NCBI GenBank assembly: GCA_010015585.1
Contig: ML975175.1
Reading direction: 5' to 3' (one strand)
DNA length: 20,000 nt
Origin: Eremomyces bilateralis CBS 781.70
Lineage: Eukaryota
A program made the position numbers and the translations under genes. Within the stretch, counting starts at the first letter, position 1, and every line of letters begins with the position of its first letter. This document shows positions 480 through 20,000 of the stretch, piece by piece. The notes under the pieces are model-generated. The model was not told where the DNA came from. It worked only from the letters and a program-made list of their open reading frames with translations, and did no database searches.

Positions 480-2476
480 TCAACTGTCGAGGCGGTGGAA
501 TCGTAGATGAGCAGCCATTGCAAACGCGGGAAGTTTGGCCTCGCATAATGTACAGTCGACGTCGTCGAGAGTGTCGACTTCGTCTTCGTCTTGCCAAAGC
601 GATTCTACTTCTTTTGTGCTGGATTGGGAGAGTCGCATGTCCTCTTCAGAGCCATATAATTCCATAGTATCGGACCGTTCCATGCTCTTTCCATTTATCG
701 AGGTTTTCTCCATGGCCTGTGGTATCTCAGTATCGATCCTCCAGCCGCTTAATCGGTCATTTTGGGTCTTGAACATTGTCGAAATGTCTCGACCGCGTCT
801 TATATCAATCTCATTGTCCATGTCAGTGACGCCAACATTGATTAGACTCAAACAGAATCTGTCCGGGTGCAGCTTTCGAAAGAGGTTCTCAAGTGTCCCT
901 GTAACAAATTGTTCAGCGATTGATGGAACGCTTTGGCCAAGGTCGAAGATAAAAGATGGAAGTGGACAGGACCGAGAGGTTCGAGCCCAGGAACGTTCCC
1001 CCTCTGTATTGGTTGCGGATGAGAATCTGTCTCTGGTAGACAGTCGAACGGTCTTTGGGCGTGCTAACCAGCGTCTTTGCTGAGGCTCGTTTTTCTGATG
1101 AGATACCCTATCGAGTATGCGCGGCTCGATATCTGTTACCAGATCCACGCGCATCCGTTTGACCAAGCTGCATGTCAACCTAAGCAGTTCATCATGTACG
1201 TCTTCTAATTTTTCGAGCTTCTGGTAGCTGTCCTCAATGCTGATACCGCGTGGTACATCTCTTGCTTGCGATACATCCGAGTCATCACATCCGTTTAGTA
1301 GTTGCCACACCCGCGTTCCAATTCCTCGTTGGGCGCCATGCCCGGAGAGAAGCCGCTCGAACGCAATGGGATTCGCATCAGGATGCTTAAGGATCTCCGA
1401 AACAGTGACGGATTCCGAGGGCTTATGATAATTCAATTCCACTGACTGGGCAGCCTCTCGTCCGAGCGTGAACGACCGGAGGGCATGTGCCATTTTATGA
1501 CCAATCCCAGGAATTAGGCCGACCTCATAATTACTTAGGAAAAGGCGGACATTGCTCTTTTCGCGTTCTATTCCCGCGTCATCTTGCAAGTCATCGGCAT
1601 AGGGCGGCATAAGTGTCGTTCCAGCGCTTGGTTTATGGACGTTTCCGGCGAGTTTTGACAAGAGCTTCGAAGTCGAAACGCCCACAGTCGAGGTATACCC
1701 CTTCTCCTTCTCAACAAGCAGACGAAGATGCTGAGCAAGGTGAGAAGCGAGATGCAAACGTAGCCTCAGCTGAATGAATACTGGATCAGACCAGTGCTGC
1801 TCCTCATCTTCTGCTAGCGGCAGCACCTGCTCTGGAAACGTATGCCCTGCTGGAACAGACGCGTCAAATGAGAATCCAACAGTGGGATCACTACGCGACA
1901 TATTGAAAAAGGCGGTCCGGAGGTCGTTATAGTTCAGAAGGCCCATATTGTATGCTATTATATCAGAGACATCCATGAACACCTAGCACTGTTAGAGGGT
2001 ATAGCTCAACCCAATATTAGGCATACCTCGTCAAGTCCAAGTCGCTCAACCCTTTCATTCCAAGAAAAGGAACGAAGATACTGAAATAGCTCTTTGGACG
2101 CATCGCGGAACTTCGTCAAGTCTTCCCCGAGCACGGTGACAACCTCAGGACATGTCTTCTTCGCCTCTGTTACCAACTGCAATTTCTGTAACCCCTGATT
2201 GTAGGATCAGCTTTGCGGGCACCACTGAGAAAAAATGAAGCACACACCCTTCTTCGAGCCTCATAGTTACATGTCGCCACGATCTGCTTCTGCTGGACTG
2301 CTAATGGGACCCCTTTTAAAGACGGGTTCTCCACCTCGAATACAGAGGCGTAGAAGCAATCATAGTCCTAACGCAATCAGCACCTCTTCAATAATCAAAG
2401 ATATTATAAAAGGCTCAAATATCATATTAATACTTACAAAATGTAGTATGATTCGGTCATCTCTCCTCGGAGGCAT
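480..2476 (-). CDS. Y-family translesion DNA polymerase, iota-like (~609 aa); exons 2476-2438, 2367-2248, 2194-2027, 1982-480
   Basis: Manual splicing at GT..AG introns (2437-2368, 2247-2195, 2026-1983, all phase 0) gives MPPRRDDRIILHF-DYDCFYASV...QKQIVATCNYEARRR-G...ERLGLDE-VFMDV. This contains the Y-family motifs DxDCFYA, TCNYEAR and LDE, plus STVGVSTSKLLSKLA, the HhH IPGIG and a C-terminal UBZ-like CTLC...HLRFH. Confidence 0.9.
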
Positions 2477-2837
2477 GCGATGCGGTCGGGTCGGCTTCAT
2501 CGTGACGCGACATATTGCGGGCCTTTGAGAAACCTGTCAATGTTTGAATTACTATCATCAAAACGGGACCCTCGCACCCGTTGCTTAATGGCGTCGATTC
2601 CCCTATCCAAGGAAATGGTACTGATTAGCAGAAGTCTACTCTGAACGTGTTCTATTCCCCTCAAGTTTGCCCTTAGTTCTCCATTCCTGGCATTGGGACA
2701 TTAGATTGTGGCGGAAGACCCATCCGAAAGGGCAGTGGGCGAGCCAAAGCTGCGCCACCAGTCCAGGGACTAATATCCACCGGGGTGTGAAAATTGACGG
2801 AACAGGGGTCTTGGCATTTCAGATTGCTGGATTTCTA

Positions 2838-3184
2838 CGGAGCTGCGTCAATAAAGTTTTGGCACACCAAGTACGGAAGTCCATTCAAAAGTTCTTGCTC
2901 GCCAAGAAAGTGGCTTGATTATATAAGCCCTTGGAAAGCCGATATCATGGGCGGTAGGGTGCCTAGCCAACGGGCGGGTACTAGACGCGGTAAATCGAAT
3001 GTCCGGCGCCCTTGGTTCGAATTAGGCTCTGTGAAACCTAGATTAAGTGCCTAGTTGATAGGCAGTCTAGTGCCTGTGGTATAGGCCTATAGGGCTCTCG
3101 AAACCGCTTATATAATCAAGCCACTATCTTGGCGATCAAGAACTTTGAAATGGAGCGTGCCAAAACTTTATTGACGCATCTCCG
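2838..3184. mobile_element. Non-autonomous Tc1/mariner-type MITE (347 bp)
   Basis: TA on both sides (2836-2837, 3185-3186). Terminal IR CGGAG(C/A)TGCGTCAATAAAGTTTTGGCAC, then after a 12-bp indel a second IR block (TCCATT..AAAGTTCTTG.TCGCCAAGA.AGTGGCTTGATTATATAAGC, 2880-2928 vs 3106-3154). No coding capacity. Confidence 0.88.
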
Positions 3185-3205
3185 TACGCCTCTATCTTTT
3201 GATTA

Positions 3206-4434
3206 CTACCCCCACGAGCTGCGAATACGGTTTCCCTCTAGCCGGACGACCTCCTCACACCGCCAGCGCATCTCAGATATCCTTGAGCGAATTTGCTGCT
3301 GCGTAATACGCCTCCACTCGCGTCGAATCGCCTCTTTGAACTCCTCTACTGTTTGCCAGTTCCCACCTCGTAGGCGTTCCTTTATAATCTGCCAAATTGC
3401 CTCAATAGGGTTGAGATCTGGTGACTGCGCAGGATGGGGTGGGATTGAGATACCTACCGCGCGTTTTGCATGCGCTGCTAGATTATTCCAGCTCCGCGTC
3501 CCATGGGACGGATCACCGTCTTCTTGTAGGTAAAAGACATGCTTATATTGCGCCTCGAGCGCCTTGATATGATCAATATGCTTTGGGAGGAAGTTTTGGG
3601 TATAATACTTTAGCGTCATCGAGTTTCCTTTGATCTTGATATCGGCCTCAAGACTGCCCTTTTCAGCGGCTTCCCATGCGTCTTGTACGGCAGCGAATTG
3701 TTCCGGGGTCTCGACACTTGATTTCCGAGGTCTCCGAGGTTTATACGCTCTTTTGGCAGCTGGTTTGACTGGGTCGGAGTAGAAATGGAAGGGCCCTTTT
3801 CGATCGTAGGAGATTCCGGCTGCAACGTGAACCGTCACGTCAAGGGGGCTACCCCGAGTCTCCTGTATTGATTCAAGGCGTCGAGATTCGCCCGGGACCG
3901 TAACTCATATTCCTGTTTATCGGCGAGCTCTCTCGAGTTGAAATGGACTTCGTCTGTAAAGTAGACCCTTTTCCACCACTGAGTAAGTGTCTTGCCCCGG
4001 TGCTCCTCGCCGTAGCCCTTTCGGATCCCCTTATTTATATCACGTATAGCCGTAGTGCTTGGATTTTTATAGTGCCTAGCGTTAAGCCGTTTTGAGAGGT
4101 TCTGATGGAGTGTTGATACCCCAACGCCTAGTTCTTTCGCTTGGTAGTCGATGTCCTTATCGTAGAGAGGTTCCTGTGGATCGAGGAGGCGCTGTAGAGT
4201 CCGGTTATCGAGTTTACGAGGTCGCCCTCGACGTTTACTTAACCCCCGTGTACGTTGTACAGCCTCTGGCCCGAGTTCTTTGCGATTCTCAAGCCATCGG
4301 ATACCTGTAGATGGTAGGATCTCAATACCCTTTTGGCGGCAGATTGAACGAAAAGAACGACGATTTTTAGACTGGTCGTATAGCCTAAAAAAGACTACTC
4401 GACGAGGAGAATCGTATTCTTGTCTTTTTTGCAT
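3206..4434 (-). pseudogene. Tc1-like DDE transposase, frameshifted near 3896-3899
   Basis: ATG at 4434, HTH-type N-terminus with GRPRKL, then VYFTDE, LQEDGDPSH and PAQSPDLNPIEAIW. ORFs 3835-4590 and 3206-3838 join if one base is restored after ...EYELR. Confidence 0.88.
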
Positions 4435-5286
4435 GATCCGATAAGCATTGCTGAAGATATTGATGCAAAAGGATTGAGGAAGCAGATATATCTCAGCTGC
4501 CAAGACCACTGTTCCGTCAATTTTCACAGTCACAAGCATGTGGTGGTGGTTTGCGTGGAATGTTTGCATTTTAATGATTTTACCCACCACGGATATCTCG
4601 CTCTCATTCCTCCCCCCTTTCCCTCTCTCCTTTCCTTCTTCTTTAGAGCTTATTTCTAGCGAATCAACCTGTTCAAACGGCTCCCTGAGTGATCCAAGGG
4701 TTCATCGATACGGATACTGGCTACTTGGTTGGTGGCTGAACTTGGAGCGCCGTTCCGGAACCTCCGGTTGGTGCCTGAGTTCACGGACGGAGGGACCTTG
4801 AGCACGGAGCAGTCATCAAGCACTCCCCCAACAAAACGGCTTTTCCGGTGTACAACTTTGGAAGCTGGAGAGTCTGTTTAGATTTACCATTTGGCTCTCT
4901 TCATTAGAGAGACGTCTCCAGAGCAAACCTGAATCTAACTAACATCAAGCGAACATGCAAAAGAGTTTCGGTGGTTCTGTACTCTAGTTCAAGCAATTCT
5001 GAGTCTATATACACTGAGCTCGCTCTTCGGAGGGTAGCATACACAGTAAAGGATCTACTCCCATGTTAATACTTATACGGAATACGAGTCGCTTTATTAA
5101 TGCAACTTATCAAGTTAATGATCGCCATTGCGGCTGAATGTTGCTCGAGTATATTAACCAAGCCACTCGATTGATTTTCAGTCATTGGCGCTGAGCCTCT
5201 TCGGAGTTCAAGTTGCGATTCACTTCCTACAAGCTGAAAACTTTCCGTTTATTAACTACGTCGTTCCTTTATCCTGACCCTCAACA

Positions 5287-7807: not shown

Positions 7808-8811
7808 CCCTCAATTTCCAACATTATTAGCGCTAAGGGATCCCCCTCAAAGAGCTACTAAGCTCGTTGGCCCTGCGCTAACATCCAGCTGCGGCGTGCC
7901 GCATGAGAACCATCCTCTGCTCTCAGCACGTTGTGGATAGCTGATCAAGAACTGAGTGGACGACAAGCCCTGACTTGCAAGTGGGCATTGAGAACCGGCT
8001 TAACCGCCCAACATGACCAGGTCAACTCACAGAGAACTCTCGTATTTGGTTAGGGCGTTTGAAGACTCCGTGGATCCTTCGTGTTCCTTTATGCGAGCTG
8101 GAGTTCCAAGGACTCCTGCCACCTCCGAGTCGGACAGCTTGGCCAACCCGAGAGCGGTGGAAACGCATGAAGCGCCTAAAACCTCAAGGTCGAGATGTCC
8201 ATGCTGCGTTCCATCGCCGTGGAGCAAGTTCATGCATTACGCACGAACACATCCGAGTTCCAGCCATATCCCAGGCTCGAGTCCGCGTGATGGGGTACGT
8301 TGCCAAGGTAGCGAGCGACGATGACGGGGCAGTGCGTGTTCCTAGGACGGCTGGAGCAATTGGCGTTGAATGGTCAATCTCATCTGCTTGAGGAGCACCC
8401 GTTCAACGAGAAGCGGACAAAATCAGTCAGTCTTAACAAGCTGCTGGGCTAGATGGTGCGATTAAGGGGCCCTCTGCTATCAAAATGCGGTGGTTAAGGG
8501 CTATTATCTAATCCTCAAGTCTACTTCGATAATCAAGCAGTTCTGTACTAAATTCGCTGTTAGTAGGGGAAAAGGCGGTCTTGTAGTAGTAGCGGGTTAC
8601 CAAACGGCACAGTAGCAAACATGCAGGCCTCCTCACTCACTTCCGGGAGAGCGCAATCCCAGAATCCCGGGGACAGACCGAGTTGGGTTCCGTACACCAA
8701 GTTAGAACGGAAGGGCTTAGTAAACCCTAATCCGGTCTGGTTTCGAGGAGCAGCTAACATAATCATGCTGCCCTCAGATAAGGATCGATTGTACGGTGGC
8801 ACACAAAGAGC

Positions 8812-11094
8812 CTAGCTCAAGGTCACTTGCTGCATTTCCTTCACAGATGCAGAACCTCTCCGCTTGGTCACACACGCATTGGGGTCTCTCTTCCTCTTTC
8901 GGTTTGCTGAGATAGTGCCCAGTGCGGGGCGTTGCTCGATGAATTGTGCCCGCTCGAAATCAATCAGCATCACTTTGCCGGTCTCCTCATTCCACAACAT
9001 GTTGCGAAGCGCGAGATCATTGTGAACGATCCCGAGGCTAGCGACCGCTTGGATTGAAGAGCGAATCAACCGAAGAATCCGTGGCCGGTTCTCGGTGGTA
9101 AGGTGCGTGGATAGGAGCTCTCCACCAAAGCTCATGAGCATCATGTGATCAAGCTTCGCAATTCCCTCGTAGTAATAGGGAGTGCTCAGGTCGATGTTGC
9201 CCAAATAAACTGGCACAATGCCGCTGCCCTGAATCGGACGGAGGCTGTCGTAGAGGGTAGCCTCGTGTTTCAGGCGGTGAGCAAAGTCGGTGGCTTTGGC
9301 GGCGATGGTATACCCGTGAGATCTGAGTCTGATGCGAAATAGGATGCCGCATGATCCAGGAGGGCCTATGGGCATGCAGTCGGTATCAAGGTCTTCTGAA
9401 AGTTGCCGACGAACGAGACTAACGAAGGTAGATAAACAAATCCGATGATAGCTCTTCCCATGGTCTCGCGCATTGGGACATGACATGTCAAGGAGACCCC
9501 GGTTGACGAGGCCAAGGAGGCACTTTTGAGTACAATGCTGTCCACCACTCGACGTTCCTCCGTGAAGATCCGCACCGGATGATGAGCGGGCGGTGGCCTG
9601 GGTGCGAGCGGAGTGTCGGGGTAAAGGCCGCTCTCGACTCGGAGTATCCGGATCAAGCTCATCATCGCTTGAATTTTCGTGACTCTGCAGTCGCACGCAA
9701 CTAGATGAGCCGGTTGTAACCGGTCGTCGTCGGAGGCGCACAGGAGACATGCGAAGGAAGCCATCGTCACGAGGTGGCCGATACTCTGACGGTGGGGCGT
9801 CCTGCAGGGGGATTGTATCGAGCAGTTCGGCGTACACCACCTCCCAGCTGTTCAGTAGGTTGGCAGCCTGGGATCGCCAGCTCTGGTTTCGAGGCGGCGA
9901 CTTCAATGCTTGGAGCGTAAACGCGAGCATTTGCCCAACCGCGGTCAGATGCAGACGATTTGGGTCGTCCGAATCCGGCACCCATTCCGTGGGTCCCCCA
10001 ACGTCACCCGTCGGGACCGATAGGAAGTAATGGACCGTACCGGGGTCCATCTCCGGCACCCGGAGGAAGATGAACGCTTCGCCGGTGCAAACGCACCCGT
10101 ATTCTACCCCAGCGTTGATCATATATGAAAACGCTTGTGTAATGATTGCGGCAATCAATCGGCGGAAGCGGTTCCGCGGAGCATCGGATTCTTGATACCG
10201 AATCACGTCCTCAAGTTTCATGTCATCCAGGCCTTCGTAAATGTACCCAAGGGGGAGATTATGCGGTGCTTTGTATTCCATGACGAAGGCAGGGATGCGG
10301 TTCTCCTGGTTCCGAATGCTCTTGTTGTAGACGCAGAATTGATCTGCACGAGGACGGGAGGATCGTATGTGAGTTGTCGGTGCCGATTCTGCCGGGTGCA
10401 CCGCCATCGATTCGTTGGCTTTGGCATGTAGGCATGCCGACCGCCGTGGCGGATTTCCGGAGAGGGGAAGTTGGTCGATGCCCTCTGCAAGCTGAGTGTC
10501 AGGGCATAGCGCGTTGGCGTGATTCTCAAAGCTGATCAAGCCCTGCAGACCAAATTCCTGCTGAAGTCTTCGGTCGGTGTTCATTTGTTGGATGATCAAC
10601 GCAACGGGGTCTTCGACAGTGGTGCGCTGGAAATGATGCAGGTCAAGCTCAGAACTCAGCGACCGTTTTCGGACCGTTTCCCCAGACTCTTGCAAAGTAT
10701 GTACCGAGGTGAAGTGCCGCTCCGAGACAAATCCCGACTGCATCAAAGTGTTCCAAATCGCGTCCTGGCGGGCTGGGAAGTCCTCCTACTCGAGCAGCTT
10801 CTCGGCTCGAAGCTTGTTGTTCGCGTTGGCAGGGTCACCCCGTGTCGACCTGGTTGCATCGGTCTGGACGGTGAGGCCGGAATGCAGGTAATTGTGGCAG
10901 GCATCGAGATATTCGGGTAGAGTGCTTTTCCGAGTGCTAAATTCAGCCTGCTCTTGGGCCCGCTCCGCTTCTTCGCGTCGACGTTGTTCCTCCTGCCATC
11001 GACGCTGTTCCTCCTGCCATCGACGCTGTTCCTCCTGTCGTCGGCTCTGCTCCTCGAAATAGAGCGTTTTGTAGTCGGGCGACTCTTCCGCCAT
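8812..11094 (-). pseudogene. Spok-like (spore killer family) nuclease-kinase gene, 760 codons, with an in-frame TAG at codon 103
   Basis: ORFs 10786-11094 and 8812-10746 are in the same frame, separated only by TAG in LLE*EDFPARQ (likely TGG, Trp). Domain order is a coiled coil with EEQRRWQ heptads, PD-(D/E)XK nuclease (RADQFCV...MEYKAPH), Cys cluster (HCTQKC...CPNARDH), kinase (HNDLALRN...IDFERA) and basic NLS RKRKR. This matches the Podospora Spok architecture and size. Confidence 0.82.
10978..11055. repeat. 21-bp tandem repeat (3 copies plus a degenerate one) encoding coiled-coil heptads
   Basis: TCGACGCTGTTCCTCCTGCCA units at 10978, 10999 and 11020. Confidence 0.9.
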
Positions 11095-11394
11095 GGCTAG
11101 CCGCTATTAGAGGTGGTCAGATGCACAAAGGAATGTCCATCTCAGAATCGGGTATAATCGCTGGTGAGACGCCAGGAAACAAGCGTGTTTACCAAAAGTT
11201 GGATTGTTGTTGTCCAAGTTACCAAGCTTAGTCCAAGCGACCAAGCAGGACTTGGCAGCGCACGGATCCCTTTTCTGGTGGTGGAACTACTATGTAGTCC
11301 CAGTATGTCCTTTCGCTGAAGATATTCTTAAGAGAACTCATCAACTCAATCTCCCTAGCGACTTACGTTCGGTTCCTCAAAGCCTACCCTTACT

Positions 11395-14300
11395 ATGCGA
11401 CTGCTTAGCACTGGCCCTGGCGGAAGCTTCAGCCTGCACTGCTTCACCAGCAACATTCCTAGCTATGCAATCCTTTCGCACACCTGGGAGGCGGATGACC
11501 AGGAGGTTACATTCCAAGATATTATGAATGCCGCGGGAACCAGCAAGACAGGCTATAGAAAGATCGAGTTTTGTAAGGAGCAAGCAGAGAAAAACGGACT
11601 TCAGTATTTCTGGGTGGACAGCTGCTGCATCGACAAGTCAAGTAGCGCCGAGCTCACAGAAGCTATCAACTCGATGTTTCGCTGGTACCAGGATGCAGCA
11701 AAATGCTATGTATATCTCTCAGACGTTTCAACAGGAAAGCACACCCGATCTTCTAAGCTCCTATGGGAACCGGCGTTTAGACAGGGTCGATGGTTCACCA
11801 GAGGTTGGACACTACAGGAGCTTCTTGCTCCGCGATCAGTCGAGTTCTTCTCCCGAGATGGCAAGCGACTTGGTAACAAAGACTCGTTAGAACAGCAAAT
11901 TCATAAGATCACTGGGATTGCAATTGACGCACTTCGAGGACATCTTTCTCAATTCAGCGACGAGGAGCGAATGGCATGGGCAGAAAAGCGAGAGACCACG
12001 AAAGAAGAGGATCAAGCATATTGCCTCATGGGAATCTTCGACGTCTCCCTACCAGTCATATATGGCGAGGGGAAAAGAAAAGCACTCCAGCGGCTTCGAG
12101 AAGCGATCGATAAGCGTTCAGGCGATACGCAAGGTAATTTAACCGCCAAATTATTTAGTTAGCCGGCTAATCTGCGAAGTGGAATGGAACAACAAGGAAC
12201 GGGACTGTATGCAAGCCCTGCGTACTTCGGCTTCCGACTACGAGCAGTTCAAGGAGAGGAACTCTAGCCGACTTAGAGATACCTGTCAGTGGGTTCTCCA
12301 TCATAAAAATTTCCGAAACTGGAAAGACAGCAGCTCCTCAAGTCTTCTTTGGATATCTGCGGATCCTGGATGCGGAAAATCGGTTTTTTCTAAATCTCTT
12401 GTCGACGAAGACTTGAAAAATATGGACGCTCGCACAACTTACTACTTCTTCTTCAAAGATGACGACGACGTACAGAAAAGTGCAGTTACAGCTCTTGCGG
12501 CACTACTCCACCAGCTCTTTCGGCGGAAACCAACACTTATTAAACATGCTATTTCGGATTTCGCCGCTAATGGACATCAACTTTCTCAATCATTTCATAC
12601 ACTCTGGGGGATTTTAATAAAGACGGTGGCTGATCGGAATGCCGGGGAAGTCTTTTGCGTCTTGGATGCCCTCGACGAATGCACAAAAGCAGGGCAGTAT
12701 CAGATTATTAACGCTCTCAGTTCATTCTATCAGCAAGCAAGCTCCGGAAACGATTCATCTCGACTCAAAATATGTATCACTAGTCGTCCTTACCCAGACA
12801 TCGAACGGCGCTTCACCGATCTTACTTCTAACTTTCCTACGATTCGGCTACACGGCGAGCAAGAGTCAGATGAAATCAGTCGTGAGATCGACCTAGTCAT
12901 CAAATGGAGAGTATCCCAACTCGGATCTGAGCTTAAGCTTAATAATTTAGAACAGTCAAATCTCGAAATAGAACTGTTAAGAATGAGCCACCGAACATAC
13001 CTCTGGGTAACGCTCATTTTCGATATCATTCGTAAAATGATTCGACCGACAAGTCGGAAACTGAAGGCAGTTATTAGTAACCTTCCGTCTACAGTTGATG
13101 AAGCATACGAAGCGATTCTTACAAAAATCGAGGAAGATGATCGACCACAAGCGCGGAAATTGCTCTATATCGTTGTTGGAGCAACCAGGCCTCTTACACT
13201 GAAGGAAATGAACATCGCTCTAGCTATAGAAGACCGTCATCGCTCCTACGACGACCTTAAGCCTGACCTTGACGATAAAGCGAGGTTTGAGGCGTCGGTG
13301 ACACACCTCTGCGGGCTCTTTGTGACTGTAGTGGATCGAACGGTCTATCTAATCCATCAGACCGCAAAAGAATTCCTTCTCGCGAAGAGCGAGGCCGCTG
13401 CTATTGGATGGAAACATTCTCTTGTTCCAACGAATTCCGAGACCCTTATGGCCAGAGCATGCCTTACATATCTTTCATTTACTGAATTTGATGGAGCGAC
13501 AGATCAGATCTCTGCAGCAGTCAAACACGACTACTTAGATTATGCTGCCGGTTCTTGGGCTGCTCACTATCGAAAAGCACAGCATAGTGCAACCGAGCAA
13601 ATGTTGGACTTGGTTTTCAGAGTCTGCGATACCCGATCCCAGCGGTTCAAGACTTGGTTCGATATATACTGGAAGATGGCTTACCAGTGGCACTCTAATC
13701 CACAGTTCACAAGCATTCTGATGGTAGAGTCATATTTTGGGCACGAGGGTATCGTCAAGCTGCTGCTCGAGGCCGAGGCCGAGGCCGACTCGAAGGATGA
13801 TAACGGTCAGACGCCGCTGTCATGGGCGGCCGAGAACGGGCATGCGGGTATCGTCAAACTGCTGCTCGAGGCCGACGCCGACGCTGACTCGAAGGATAAC
13901 AACGGTCGGACGCCGCTGTGGAGGGCGGCCACGAACGGGCACGAGAGTATCGTCAAGCAGCTGCACGAGGCCGAGGCCGAGGCCGACTCGAAGGATAACT
14001 ACGGTCGGACGCCGCTGTGGAGGGCGGCCGAGAACGGGCACGCGGGTGTCGTCAAGCTGCTGCTCGAGGCCGAGGTCGACGCTAACTCGAAGGATAACAA
14101 CGGTCAGACGGCGCTGTCGTGGGCGGCCGCGAACGGGCATAAGAGTATCATCAAGCTGCTGCTCGAGGCCGAGGCCGAGGCCGACTCGAAGGATGACTAC
14201 GGTCGGACGCCGCTGTCGTGGGCAGCCGAGAACGGGCACGAGGGTATCGTCAAGCTGCTGCTCGAGGCCGAGGCCGAGGCCGACTCGAAGGACGATGACG

Positions 14301-14509
14301 GTCGGACGCTGCTATGGTGGGCGGCCGAGAACGGGCACGAGAGTATCGTCAAGCTGCTGCTCGAGGCCGGCGTCGACGCCAACTCGAAGGATAACTACGG
14401 TCGGACGCCGCTGTGGTGGGCGGCCGCGAACGGGCACGAGGGTATCGTGAAGCTGCTGGAGTCCTTTAGCACTCTAGGATTTTCGGTTTGCCCCCCACCC
14501 ACTACCTAA
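11395..14509 (+). CDS. Fungal NLR-like protein HET-NACHT-ankyrin (~1022 aa); exons 11395-12133 and 12180-14509
   Basis: HET domain (YAILSHTW, YFWVDSCCIDK, WFTRGWTLQELLAP); 46-nt intron GTAATT...GCTAAT...AAG keeps the frame; NACHT P-loop ADPGCGKS, Walker B VLDALDEC and ITSRP; C-terminal ankyrin repeats. Confidence 0.92.
13739..14459 (+). repeat. 99-bp high-identity ankyrin tandem repeat, 7 full units plus a partial unit
   Basis: Units begin GGGCAYG/AAG..TATCGTCAAG-like at 13739, 13838, 13937, 14036, 14135, 14234, 14333 and 14432. The array is GC-rich and contains internal GAGGCC hexamers. Confidence 0.95.
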
Positions 14510-15360: not shown

Positions 15361-15735
15361 GGTGAGGCACACCCCACTGTGCTCCATTCATACCCGCTGA
15401 CCCCGCCACCCTGCTCCATTCACGCCCTACCCGGTCACATGACATACCAATCCCTTAGAAATGTGGTCGTGGGTTACCTCAGCAAGCTCAGGCTATTTGT
15501 GGTCGTGCCAAGGCACCGGAGTGGGACTATACCTAATCGGTAAGTCACATGCACTCCTCGAACAAATAGCCTGAGGATTCTGTCAATGGGTTTTGGGTGT
15601 GTGTGGAGAGCTTTCATACCAAATGGAAGACCATTTTTAACTCCATTTTCTTCCACAACCACACTGTGCTCCGTCAATTAAATATAACCATTCGATTCCC
15701 CTGCTTTTTCTCCATAATTGATTGAATTTTGGGTC

Positions 15736-16600
15736 ATGTCGGCCTGAAACCAGCGTCGTCAGAGCGCGCGGTTGAACTCGCCCACTTTGCTACTTGCTCC
15801 AAGTCCTCAGCATAGTGCTGCGTCAAACACATCTAATGCACCACATCAGAAAGTAAGAGGGTCTCAAAGACGCAGTAAGCCACAGAGAATAAATGAGATA
15901 TGTCAATTCATGAAGAAAAGAGCATTAAATTTTGAGAATTTATCTACATCTACGCGACGACTTAAGGGTTGGGTGGTTATAGAGAGTGCTCTGTCACGCG
16001 AGCCAAATAGCTCGCTGAGGCTGTCTACGGTTAGCCAGAGCCCAGAGGTCTTAGACGCACTATAAGAATCCCGCGTCTAGTGCGGCAGGAACTATCACTA
16101 TAAAGGGTCTAAGGAAGGAAATGAAGGCACTAGAAGAAGCCGTAGATATGTTTAGTGCCTACTAAGTCGACTGCATCTAGGAGAAGACTTTACCTACCGG
16201 CGTAGGGAGGGGGAAACAGTTAGAGGGTTAGAAAATCGAGGACTACGAGTGTATACTAGGCGACATACTGTCTAGGCAGATATACGAGCAAGTTAGCACT
16301 CGTGCTCCTCTTCTATGTAGATTGCTTAATAGTCTTATGACACCTAAGATGAGAAAAGATCGACTACCACGGGATCCTGTTAAGTTTAACCACAGGATTG
16401 CGATAGTCACGTTAATTCTCTGCTATTCTCGGGGGTCGGAAGGGAGCAATAGGTTTCCCCGCGTATTTGACGCCTTTCTGCATTCAAATGGTGTGAAACG
16501 GCGTGTCCTCGATATTCTTCACCAGCTTGGGGTTTATAAAGGCTACAAGAGGGCCCACAGATATCTCGAAACCGTGGCAGAATAAACAAAGGCATCCTTA
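15736..16600 (+). pseudogene. N-terminal remnant of a DUF6589/Academ-type transposase-like protein
   Basis: Degenerate frame with many TAG/TAA stops, ending in ILCYSRGSEGSNRFPRVFDAFLHSNGVKRRVLDILHQLGVYKGY. This resembles the LxLHxxGxxRRVIDxLxxLG..SY motif of fungal DUF6589-associated proteins. Truncated at about 16600. Confidence 0.6.
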
Positions 16601-16654
16601 TCGCCTCTTAGTATATAGACGTCGACCGATTATAACTAGGGGACGGTCCGTCGA

Positions 16655-17024
16655 TATACTCCTGTCTAATTCGATCCAAAGGGATAAGGATGAAGCCGAT
16701 GCCACCGCGACAAAGCAATAGCGTTACCTGGAATATGACACTTTTACCAAAAGATATCTTCGCTACAAGAGGAAGGTCCTCCTACTTGAATACTAAATGC
16801 CATATAACATCTACCTGCTTCTAACGAGGCTCGAATGGGTAGAGATGGCGGTCTAGGCCTGCTCGGATGATGACCTTCTGCACTTCCTCGGGCACGTCTC
16901 TTGCAATTTCGACCAGCCGCTGTATAGCTAGCATACTCGTAGTGCTATAGGCATCGTGGACGAGATCTCTGGCGATGTCCACAGTCTCTCGTCGCCCGTT
17001 TCGAACGCTCGCCTTGCTTCGCAT
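16655..17024 (-). pseudogene. N-terminal remnant of a RecQ-like SF2 helicase
   Basis: Reading through two TAG stops gives YPFEPR*KQVDVIWHLVFK*EDLPLVAKISFGKSVIFQ...GIGFILIPL, i.e. the Q motif, Walker A (AKTSFGKS with a T>I change) and motif Ia. Confidence 0.8.
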
Positions 17025-17544
17025 GGGAAATATGAACACAAAATGTGTTCAATAATAGATATTCGTGTGAATACCGACCGAGAAAGGCGTTATATGACAT
17101 CCAATGGGTGTTTTCCAGGCTCATTCGACCGTAAGCTCCGGAACGATGGCTGGATGGTGATTTCGGTGTGGTCTAGTTCATCACATATTAGCGTTTTTCA
17201 CCCGACACAAGCATGGACATGTAAAAAAAAATCAATTACGAGATAGAGAATACTTTAATACACAATCGATCAGATTTTGGAGTACATACGACGTGTTTTG
17301 ATGTGGTTATTAATGGATCGTGATTTTGTCAAATCCACAGAGATACATACAAACCACATACAAAATTTATGCAGAGCAGTGCGCGTCATTGACAGAATCC
17401 TCAGGCTATTTACCAGAGGAGTAGTTAAAGTAACGTGACCTTTTACAAAAAAGGTTAGACTCCCCTGAGAAATAGCCTGAGCTTGCTGAGGTAAGTCGTG
17501 GGACTCCTCAAAACTGAGGATGAGTAAGCTTCAGCTGACGAACC

Positions 17545-20000
17545 TAGGGCAGTCCAAATGAGCTCATCTGGATTAAATGATGAATTACAGAGGAATCTCA
17601 TAAAAGGTGGCAGTAATGGGCCCGTGCGTTGCTGATTAATCATGCTGAGTCATCATACTGAGTCATGTAACGTGCCTATTTTATGAAGAATTGAAGATTG
17701 AGGCTATGTACAGAGTATATACACGCCCATTGCTTGAACAATTGCGTACTAAGATGCCCCCCAAAGGGCGCATCCCCGATGTAGAAATACTCAATTCCTT
17801 TATACGAATAAAACACCTTGATTACGCTACAGATAGAGCTATCTGTACTCTAAGGCGTGTAAGACAGAACGATCCTGGCAAACCACCGACCTCCGGACAC
17901 ACCTCACACGCTGCAAGCCATACCTTACGCTTAATGGGAAATTATAGACGTCAATCCAGCCGAAACTTAGGGTGCCGTCGCTCTCTGCGCTACAAATGAG
18001 GACTATCCAGTTGGATATGACAATGGCTGTCATAATGGATGCCTTACCGCTTGATGCTTTTGAGGAGAAGAAGCACCTCGCGCGTATCTATCGCACGTTC
18101 TATCCTCTCGTCAAGCCTCCTACACGGAAGGATATCGTCAACGACTTTCTACCAGGTTAGTTTAAGTACTCTTTTATTTCTCCCAGCCACTAATTAAGTA
18201 GAACTCTACGAACGTTGCCGGAAGCAAGTTATGCCTATTATTCAGAGCTCCTCCACAATCAACCTTATTGCTGATGAGTCGAACAACATACGCAAGAAAC
18301 GAGTCCAGAATCTCTGTGTCAACGTGCCAGACTACGGCGCCTTATATATCAAATCCGAGATCCTCGCCGGCGAAACCTTAAATGGCGAATGGAGCGCGGG
18401 GTGGCTATACAAGTGCATGAAGGAACTATGCAATGGCAACTTCACACGGATCAATTCGGTTACAACAGACACCTGTGCTACACAGCTTAAAGCGGCGACG
18501 ATACTCAGCAAGCAACCGGAGCTTCGACACGTATTCTTTGTACCGTGCAATAGCCACGGCTTGCAGCTCCTTATTAAAGACATTGTGTTACTCCCGTGGT
18601 TCGAAGAACGGTTCAAAAAAGCACAGGCTATTGTTACGGCATTTACCTCCTCTCCAAAGCAACTAGGTATCCTCCGAGAGCATATGCAAAGTACAATGCA
18701 GAAGGTATACTCCTTTACCTTATCTGTTATTACTAGATGGGGTACTCAAGTATCAATGCTCAAGTCTGTCAAGCGAGCACAACCGGCCTTATTACTGTAC
18801 TTCAACAGCCTACCAGACGAGGTAGGCGATTCGGTAAACGAGCTTAAGGCGGTAGTCTGGGATCGACAATTCTGGATTGACATCGAATTCATCCTCCACA
18901 TTTTGGAACCGATCGATAGCCTTATTAAGCAGTCAGAATCGGACTCTGCAAAGCTTCACCACGTCGTGACTAGCTGGAAGCAAGCTCAACAGCACTTAGC
19001 CAATATCGTTCAAGAACGTCCTGATATCGATGACCTCTCAAAGATCCCACAACTCCTGCAGTCTCGATTTGAACGTCAAACGACAGATATTCATATTGCT
19101 GCGTTCCTTCTTAACCCACATACGATCGGCGACGACTCAATACCATTCCATACAGCCGCACAGGTTTGGGAGAAGCTTAATAACTTCTTAAAGAGGATGG
19201 GGGTGGATTATAAGAATGCTATAACTCAGATCATTGAGTTTCGGGGGCGTGAAGGACGATTCAATATGGGACACTTTATATGGGAGCATAAAGAGACGAT
19301 TAAGACTTTCTGGCAGATTGCGTCCACATTCGCCCCAGCAGTTGGACCTATTGCATTGAGACTGGCATCAACTCCTTGCAATTCAGTGCCCTGTGAGCGC
19401 TCCTTCTCTATACTCAAACTATTACAGAACAAGCTCCGTTCATGCCTTGAGGGTACGAATGTTGATATGCTACAATTCGTGTATATCAATCAGAGAGTAT
19501 TTGATAGGAAGGGAAGAGACCATGCTAGCGAGATTGAAAATGCAGCGGAGGACTTAGAGGAGGAGTATATTGAGCTTGAAGATGGCCTTATTGAGGCGGG
19601 AGAAGATCATGTAGATAATCCTATGCTATTGTAAACACGAAAAGAATCAATATCTTTAGGATTAAAGCTTCAAATACGTTAACAAAGAAAAGCAGTTGAA
19701 GGTAGGAACCAAGTTGGCTAGTATTTATAAGGACGGCGAGCCCTAATGTACATACACGTCCATTACTGTTATGGTTTGGTCATTTGAGTGATGAAGATGT
19801 CGATTACAAGACTTATACAGTTGGAGAGAGCTATGAGAACGGGTATTAGGATCTCCTGCAAATACTGCTGCGGGTGCCTCAGGCACTAATATTTGGGTAA
19901 TGCTATACCTAATTAGGCTAGTATTAATGAGGGCATTTATGAGCGCTAGAGCTAAATCGGGTTAGATTTCATGAAGACTTTATGAGGACGGCGTGCCCTA
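17545..20000 (+). mobile_element. hAT-superfamily transposon (boundaries tentative)
   Basis: TAGGGCA at 17545 and TGCCCTA at 19994-20000; ATGAG/CTCAT subterminal motifs at both ends; hAT transposase inside. The TSD cannot be checked because the window ends here. Confidence 0.6.
17754..19634 (+). pseudogene. hAT transposase (BED finger plus DDE core plus dimerisation domain); frameshift at about 17855, TAG at 17945-17947, intron 18156-18201
   Basis: C..C...HLTRC BED-like finger across the frameshift; catalytic motifs IADES, VTTD, CNSHGLQL, TRWGT and SVPCERSFS; intron GTTAGT...CTAAT...TAG restores the frame into ORF 18231-19634. Confidence 0.88.

Follow-up and report, generated by a model that had tools for sequence, protein, structure and literature searches.

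A Spok-Family Gene of Eremomyces bilateralis Probably Inactivated Recently by a Single Premature Stop Codon

Introduction

Is a spore killer gene interrupted by a single stop codon a dead gene, or is its stop read conditionally? This question is raised by a Spok-family gene of Eremomyces bilateralis CBS 781.70. The window analysed here is a stretch of 20,000 nucleotides of contig ML975175.1 (assembly GCA_010015585.1), and the gene occupies positions 8812–11094 on its minus strand. Each Spok gene is by itself a driver that combines killer and antidote, and the question is how such drivers come to be lost or tamed. In the first-pass annotation of the window, the gene was considered a Spok-like driver that had been disarmed very recently by one TGG to TAG change. 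The data presented below indicate that this Spok homologue of a Dothideomycete is still transcribed and was probably inactivated recently. A very young pseudogene, ordinary for the Spok family, is the most likely state of the gene. A literature search for Eremomyces together with Spok found no publication.

One Stop Codon in an Otherwise Open Gene

Translation of the minus strand gives 760 codons followed by a terminal TAG (8812–8814), with one internal TAG at 10786–10788. The internal TAG is codon 103, in the context GAG TAG GAG, and it replaces a near-invariant Trp in N-terminal domain 1. Trp is seen at this column in 23 of 24 homologues in an alignment of 25 sequences. In an alignment of 120 sequences it is seen in 114 of 119 homologues, and the remaining 5 have gaps. 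Because Trp has only one codon, the change corresponds to TGG>TAG, a single G>A. Upstream of the stop, a frame of 102 codons from the first ATG (10789–11094, minus strand) encodes the coiled coil and the first half of domain 1. Downstream, a 643-codon frame from Met-118 (M118; ATG at 10743–10741) spans 8815–10743 on the same strand. This is the protein P0002 annotated on the source assembly, which is 643 aa long and 100% identical to the M118 frame. Of 8000 candidates scored against the read-through translation, with X at the stop, 664 match at E ≤ 0.001. Given its length of 2.3 kb, its single stop and this many homologues, the frame is no chance open reading frame (ORF).

The stop is found in both DNA and RNA contigs. 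A DNA contig (X1, record 5; 9181–11014) and an RNA contig (X3, record 9; 8601–11014) each show 0 differences from the window, stop included. X1 is possibly the library behind the assembly, while X3 is a separate sample from a separate study. X3 was marked as RNA by guess only, and a spliced joint in it backs the label. The joint corresponds to a 53-nt intron at 8548–8600 (minus strand), with GT..AG ends and a CTAAC branch site, which lies in the 3' untranslated region (UTR), 212 nt beyond the normal stop. It is seen in X3 alone and is absent in the DNA run X1. Since X3 skips this interval and X1 does not, X3 is spliced RNA. The match of this spliced RNA to the window indicates that the gene is transcribed, that its coding region is intronless, and that the stop is on the mRNA. 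X3 represents one RNA data set whose growth stage is not on record, and contigs conceal minor variants. The RNA contigs extend upstream of the internal stop. Cover by X3 is lacking at 11082–11402, the stretch holding the first ATG, as the frame begins at 11094. At the other end, the RNA contig extends more than 800 nt beyond the normal stop; either the 3' UTR is long and spliced, or a neighbouring transcript is fused to this one. Two further runs, X4 and X5, yielded no contig at the locus, which is no proof of absence.

Two trivial explanations of the TAG can be dismissed. An intron removing the TAG is ruled out, because X3 is collinear with the window from 11014 to 8601 and there is no splicing across the stop. 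A study of Fusarium Spok homologues cautions that premature stops in these genes may be Nanopore errors. Here, sequencing error is ruled out by the agreement between DNA and RNA contigs, with 0 differences in either. This disposes of one objection that the first-pass annotation had raised against itself, and the 760 codons with a sole internal stop and the TGG>TAG change at a conserved Trp, both described there, are borne out by the translation and by the alignments.

Domain Architecture of the Encoded Protein

The gene is a member of the Spok family, broken by a stop. A precomputed match to PF27653.1 is present on P0002 and on homologues among the matches listed. PF27653 is SPOK2_N, "Spore killer 2 N-terminal domain", according to the Atlas output. 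Among the matches listed, the best named homologues show 64% identity over 95–100% of the length, and most of them are from Dothideomycetes. Spok sequences of Podospora or Fusarium are not among the 120 matches listed at most. The family assignment made in the first-pass annotation thus agrees with the profile, and the nuclease EYK, Cys cluster and kinase HxD..N/DFE motifs that it described as intact are all located at conserved columns.

From the N-terminus, the protein starts with a coiled coil. It contains the repeat EEQRRWQ, encoded by a 21-nt tandem repeat in 3.7 copies at 10978–11055 (minus strand). The number of coiled-coil repeats differs between aligned homologues, and Logan contigs break at the 21-nt repeat. 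The PD-(D/E)XK nuclease core corresponds to residues 249–400 approximately (9895–10350, minus strand), as defined by conserved columns, the structural model and structural matches. Its motif consists of D251, E273-Y-K275 and Q320xxxY324, all of which are invariant or near-invariant alignment columns. Next is a Cys/His cluster at 9445–9534 (minus strand), C521-x3-C525-x13-C539-x5-H545-x4-H550, whose columns are likewise invariant or near-invariant. The C-terminal kinase domain, approximately residues 574–725 (8920–9375, minus strand), was recognised by Pfam and by structure-profile matches. Its motifs have the spacing H691-N-D693-x4-N698, followed by D712-F-E714, again at invariant or near-invariant columns. 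The Pfam scan returned the kinase families APH (1.7e-05, above the cut-off), Kdo and Pkinase, and the best profile match to a solved kinase was 4e-07.

The structure of residues 1–480 was modelled from 120 sequences, with a predicted local distance difference test (pLDDT) score of 82.4 and a predicted template modelling (pTM) score of 0.80. A model of the whole protein (761 residues, 25 sequences) was discarded, as its pLDDT was 44.1 and its pTM 0.27. In the model of residues 1–480, the coiled coil is a helix from 8 to 54 with pLDDT of about 95 or more, and the PD-(D/E)XK core has pLDDT of 85–98. Foldseek of this model against the PDB gave no match at E ≤ 0.001. An exhaustive structural alignment against 48,161 chains placed the restriction nuclease BpuSI at the top (Z 9.4, root mean square deviation 3.7, 155 aligned residues, model residues 62–422), and no other chain reached Z ≥ 8 during the first pass. 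The next matches were DrdV (Z 6.8), the HsdR fragment of Vibrio vulnificus (3h1t, Z 6.5) and EcoR124I HsdR (Z 6.0). The sequence identity to these structural matches is just 8–14%. The V. vulnificus HsdR fragment is also the best structural hit named in Vogan 2019. A nuclease fold is thus predicted for the N-terminal half with moderate confidence.

The structurally aligned unit starts at residue 62, ahead of the stop at codon 103. There are 17 near-invariant columns ahead of the stop, from T57 to P97. Residues 54–117 were modelled at pLDDT of 88–97, save one dip, and form one folded unit with the nuclease domain in the model.

Age of the Stop Codon

The proposed course of events is as follows. 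One G>A transition would have converted the conserved Trp-103 codon TGG to TAG. The promoter would still be working, as the unspliced coding region is transcribed with the stop inside. Ribosomes starting from the strong first ATG would yield only a peptide of 102 residues, which comprises the coiled coil and half of domain 1. The full-length nuclease-kinase would not be made, so that the gene would no longer be a killer or an antidote.

The loss appears recent because the rest of the frame is undecayed. Approximately 3.6–3.9% of the possible substitutions in the frame would add a further stop, and none is present. This limits the neutral divergence since the stop to less than about 0.034–0.036 at the 5% level if indels are left out of account. 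If 0.1 indels per substitution are counted in, a rate which is our own assumption, the limit is about 0.011. The frame before the stop is kept as well as the frame after it. In the 120-sequence alignment of residues 1–480, conservation is 95% or higher at 97 columns, and the protein departs from the consensus at 3 of these; this is rank 19 of 120, where the median is 1.0%. With no second disabling change in the frame, the very recent disarming proposed in the first-pass annotation holds within these bounds. Loss of function, its recency, and its origin by an ordinary point mutation are what we infer from these observations.

Several observations weigh against a recent and complete loss. In the 25-sequence alignment, 16 of 236 near-invariant columns (6.8%) show departures, versus 0–4% in most close relatives. 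Judged from the alignment, this raised count could reflect an older relaxation. Relaxed constraint was rejected as an explanation, since the gene is no outlier in the larger alignment, although it may carry some extra divergence. The case is built on a single genome and the single RNA data set. The transcript is abundant enough to be assembled despite the stop at codon 103; an assembled transcript fits a young pseudogene, and equally a gene in use. With one RNA data set as the basis, a conditional read-through or edit of the UAG is possible, and so is the annotated product of 643 aa, which is a prediction. These possibilities are considered in the next section.

Origin and Possible Bypass of the Stop Codon

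Part of the gene is duplicated, which bears on the origin of the stop. The duplicated segment, at 8300–9395, covers the kinase end and the 3' flank. It was recognised by a second set of X1 contigs with 47 differing places, and the likeness ends at 9395. Of these 47 places, 40 were listed, 34 of them transitions. The second copy is on another scaffold of the same organism and encodes P0242, a kinase-only protein of 177 aa. P0242 is identical to residues 574–744 at 157 of 171 positions and retains the catalytic motifs. Within the coding overlap, the listed differences comprise 13 non-synonymous and 10 synonymous ones, and two single-base indels between the copies are found near the 3' end. Judged from its sequence, P0242 could be a stand-alone antidote-like remnant.

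Repeat-induced point mutation (RIP) leaking from this duplicated segment might have produced the stop, in which case the gene was silenced by genome defence and not by a chance mutation. The change is a G>A within TpG, which is a RIP-type dinucleotide, at least 1.1 kb of the gene (8300–9395) has a copy elsewhere at about 92–96% identity with transitions at 40 of the 47 differences, and the nearby interval 16001–17000 is RIP-like, with a TpA/ApT of 1.25 and a substrate ratio of 0.83. However, any TGG>TAG change meets the dinucleotide context of RIP trivially, and a single transition is not assignable to any process. The thresholds of the RIP indices used for comparison are 0.89 and 1.03. The whole gene, with TpA/ApT of 0.43 and (CpA+TpG)/(ApC+GpT) of 1.25, is not RIP-like, and its duplicated and non-duplicated parts (0.41–0.71 and 1.10–1.34) are not either. 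A CpA/TpG context is seen for just 8 of the 34 listed transitions that separate the copies, which is about the chance share, and the stop lies 1.4 kb past the end of the duplicated segment. The RIP origin suggested in the first-pass annotation finds no echo in the composition of the gene or in its differences from the paralogue, and it is considered quite improbable. Whatever produced the stop, a protein might still start from M118, by re-initiation or from an internal transcript start. Such an N-truncated protein of 643 aa would keep the kinase antidote or another function and would have lost full killing. Between 10743 and 8815 there are 643 codons free of stops that include every catalytic motif, and the gene caller picked this frame. 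According to Vogan 2019, resistance of SPOK3 maps to the kinase domain while killing requires the N-terminal residues 1–490, and a kinase-only paralogue with intact motifs persists in the present genome. A truncated antidote-like product of M118 is conceivable by this analogy. Yet the first ATG is in a strong context (GCC ATG G) and M118 in a poor one (TTG ATG C), and four out-of-frame ATGs and the 102-codon upstream frame precede M118. The RNA contigs reach upstream of the stop, which means that the assembled transcript did not arise from an internal start. The first-pass annotation expected a coil-less nuclease-kinase from this start; the ATG at 10743–10741 does exist, but its product would be deprived not of the coil alone but also of the conserved residues 54–117 of domain 1, which are near-invariant and part of the folded N-terminal unit that aligns with restriction nucleases from residue 62 on. 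Long sole use of the M118 frame should also have led to decay of codons 1–117, and no decay is seen. Rescue by the downstream start is therefore unlikely, and the state of a young pseudogene is preferred.

The other conceivable bypass acts on the UAG itself. If it were converted to UGG by sexual-stage adenosine-to-inosine (A-to-I) editing of the mRNA, or read through, the 760-residue Spok protein would be made in ascus development only. A spore killer of Fusarium verticillioides is reportedly controlled by A-to-I editing. A change of UAG to UGG would give back exactly the conserved Trp, and the halves of the frame on either side of the stop are both intact. A precedent is provided by rfk-1 of Neurospora Sk-2, whose early UAG is edited, as is needed for killing, and about 70 genes of Fusarium graminearum are described that require correction of premature stops by editing. 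The U at −1, G at +1, G at +2 and A/G at +3/+4 of the present site fit the preferences given for F. graminearum, but positions −2 and −3 are off this preference, and just about 9% of UAG triplets are described as edited even in F. graminearum. The host belongs to the Dothideomycetes, order Eremomycetales. In the literature consulted, editing is recorded for Sordariomycetes and for Pyronema, with Leotiomycetes marked "not yet", and the Ame1-Tad3 interaction required for editing is placed within Sordariomycetes. A literature search found no report of mRNA editing in Dothideomycetes; of the papers that came up, one names the class solely for residue conservation, and the others deal, going by title and abstract, with F. 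graminearum. The sole RNA contig has the unedited A, as far as a contig, which conceals minor variants, from an unrecorded growth stage can tell. The fold of ±30 nt (61 nt) places the A in an internal loop and not in that of a hairpin, and of three local folds the shortest (31 nt) alone has it in a hairpin loop. None of the three exceeds shuffled sequences in stability (z from −0.09 to 0.31). The editing rescue raised in the first-pass annotation thus has the rfk-1 precedent on its side, and a Dothideomycete host and an unedited RNA contig against it. It is unlikely, indeed highly improbable. Least credible is the TAG as a regulatory device proper, with the UAG read as Trp in ascus development only, whether by A-to-I editing or by other stage-specific recoding; hardly any probability is assigned to it. 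If it were true, a toxic Spok nuclease-kinase would be silent in mycelium and armed in the sexual stage, editing-controlled spore killing, as in rfk-1 and the Fusarium killer, would reach the Spok family, and fungal mRNA editing would reach a class without any reported case.

Genes and Repeats around the Locus

The region around the Spok gene looks variable. The last exon of a gene similar to polymerase iota lies at 480–1982 (minus strand). Its product is 100% identical to a protein named from Eremomyces bilateralis, and its nearest relatives in other species are only 44–45% identical, which marks the host lineage as an isolated one among the fungi sequenced so far. A Tc1/mariner-like element at 2786–4528 has 39-nt inverted ends that are 90% complementary. 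Its DDE_3 transposase is contained in two adjacent ORFs, 3206–3838 and 3835–4590, and the element is probably defective because the transposase is split.

On the other side of the Spok gene, at 11395–14509 (plus strand), a HET ORF is followed, in another frame, by an ORF with NACHT/NPHP3_N and ankyrin repeats. Together they form a fungal gene of the NLR type, which points away from the Spok gene across approximately 300 bp. It contains seven ankyrin units of 99 nt; the five central ones (13838–14434) are 86–100% alike, and the flanking two are 65% and 72% alike. Further on, a segment of approximately 2 kb (15474–17494) lies between inverted repeats of 25–36 nt and contains no recognisable ORF. 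The sole RIP-like part of the window, 16001–17000, is inside this segment. An ORF of 467 aa at 18231–19634 (plus strand) has DUF659 and a hAT dimerisation domain and corresponds to a hAT-type transposase. No Starship captain (DUF3435) was found in the 28 scanned of the 41 ORFs of at least 80 aa in the 20-kb window, the other 13 being the 2 Spok frames and 11 ORFs that overlap with known genes; a Starship element could be much larger than this window.

Comparison with Known Systems

The nuclease domain resembles those of type I, IIG and IIL restriction enzymes (BpuSI, DrdV and HsdR) in its fold and in the conserved D...ExK. Here the nuclease is fused to a kinase, not to the methylase or helicase modules of those enzymes. 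In having an early UAG in a killer-type gene whose reading as Trp would give an active product, the present gene resembles rfk-1. However, rfk-1 and the F. verticillioides killer belong to protein families unrelated to the present gene, and both are from Sordariomycetes, where the editing machinery is documented.

In its layout, the gene is like Spok1–4 of Podospora. A coiled coil whose repeat varies, then domain 1, PD-(D/E)XK with QxxxY, the Cys/His cluster and the kinase occur in the same order, and the layout was matched to the published description of SPOK3. The landmarks matched include the catalytic Lys of the SPOK3 nuclease, K240, and the catalytic Asp of its kinase, D667, both as given there. 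The last spacing of the Cys/His cluster is x4 here versus x7 printed for SPOK3 in Vogan 2019. The coding region is intronless here, and the same is described for Spok homologues in the Fusarium study. The present gene is transcribed, at a growth stage that is not on record, and Podospora Spok1 and Spok2 are expressed vegetatively. The present gene differs from Podospora Spok1–4 in the stop at codon 103 and in its host, which is a Dothideomycete and not a member of the Sordariales. Drive or toxicity is known for Podospora Spok, while the present gene is known from its sequence and transcript alone.

Pseudogenised copies of Spok are reported to be common and to "exist in many genomes" (Vogan 2019; also the Fusarium study). 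Spok homologues with premature stops include Spok-Psi1, the Clade I/II pseudogenes and the FuSpok pseudogenes, and the present gene is similar to them in this respect. On present evidence it is one more pseudogenised Spok homologue, and its import would be wider only if the stop were conditionally read. The kinase-only paralogue in the same genome could be a possible stand-alone antidote. Spok-Psi1 has many stops and a transposon insertion and lacks the 5' end, whereas in the present copy one stop is the only damage. Because of this, the present copy can be placed at the earliest visible stage of decay. Still transcribed and with exactly one disabling change, it is a natural and clean "before and after" allele in which the role of domain 1 can be probed.

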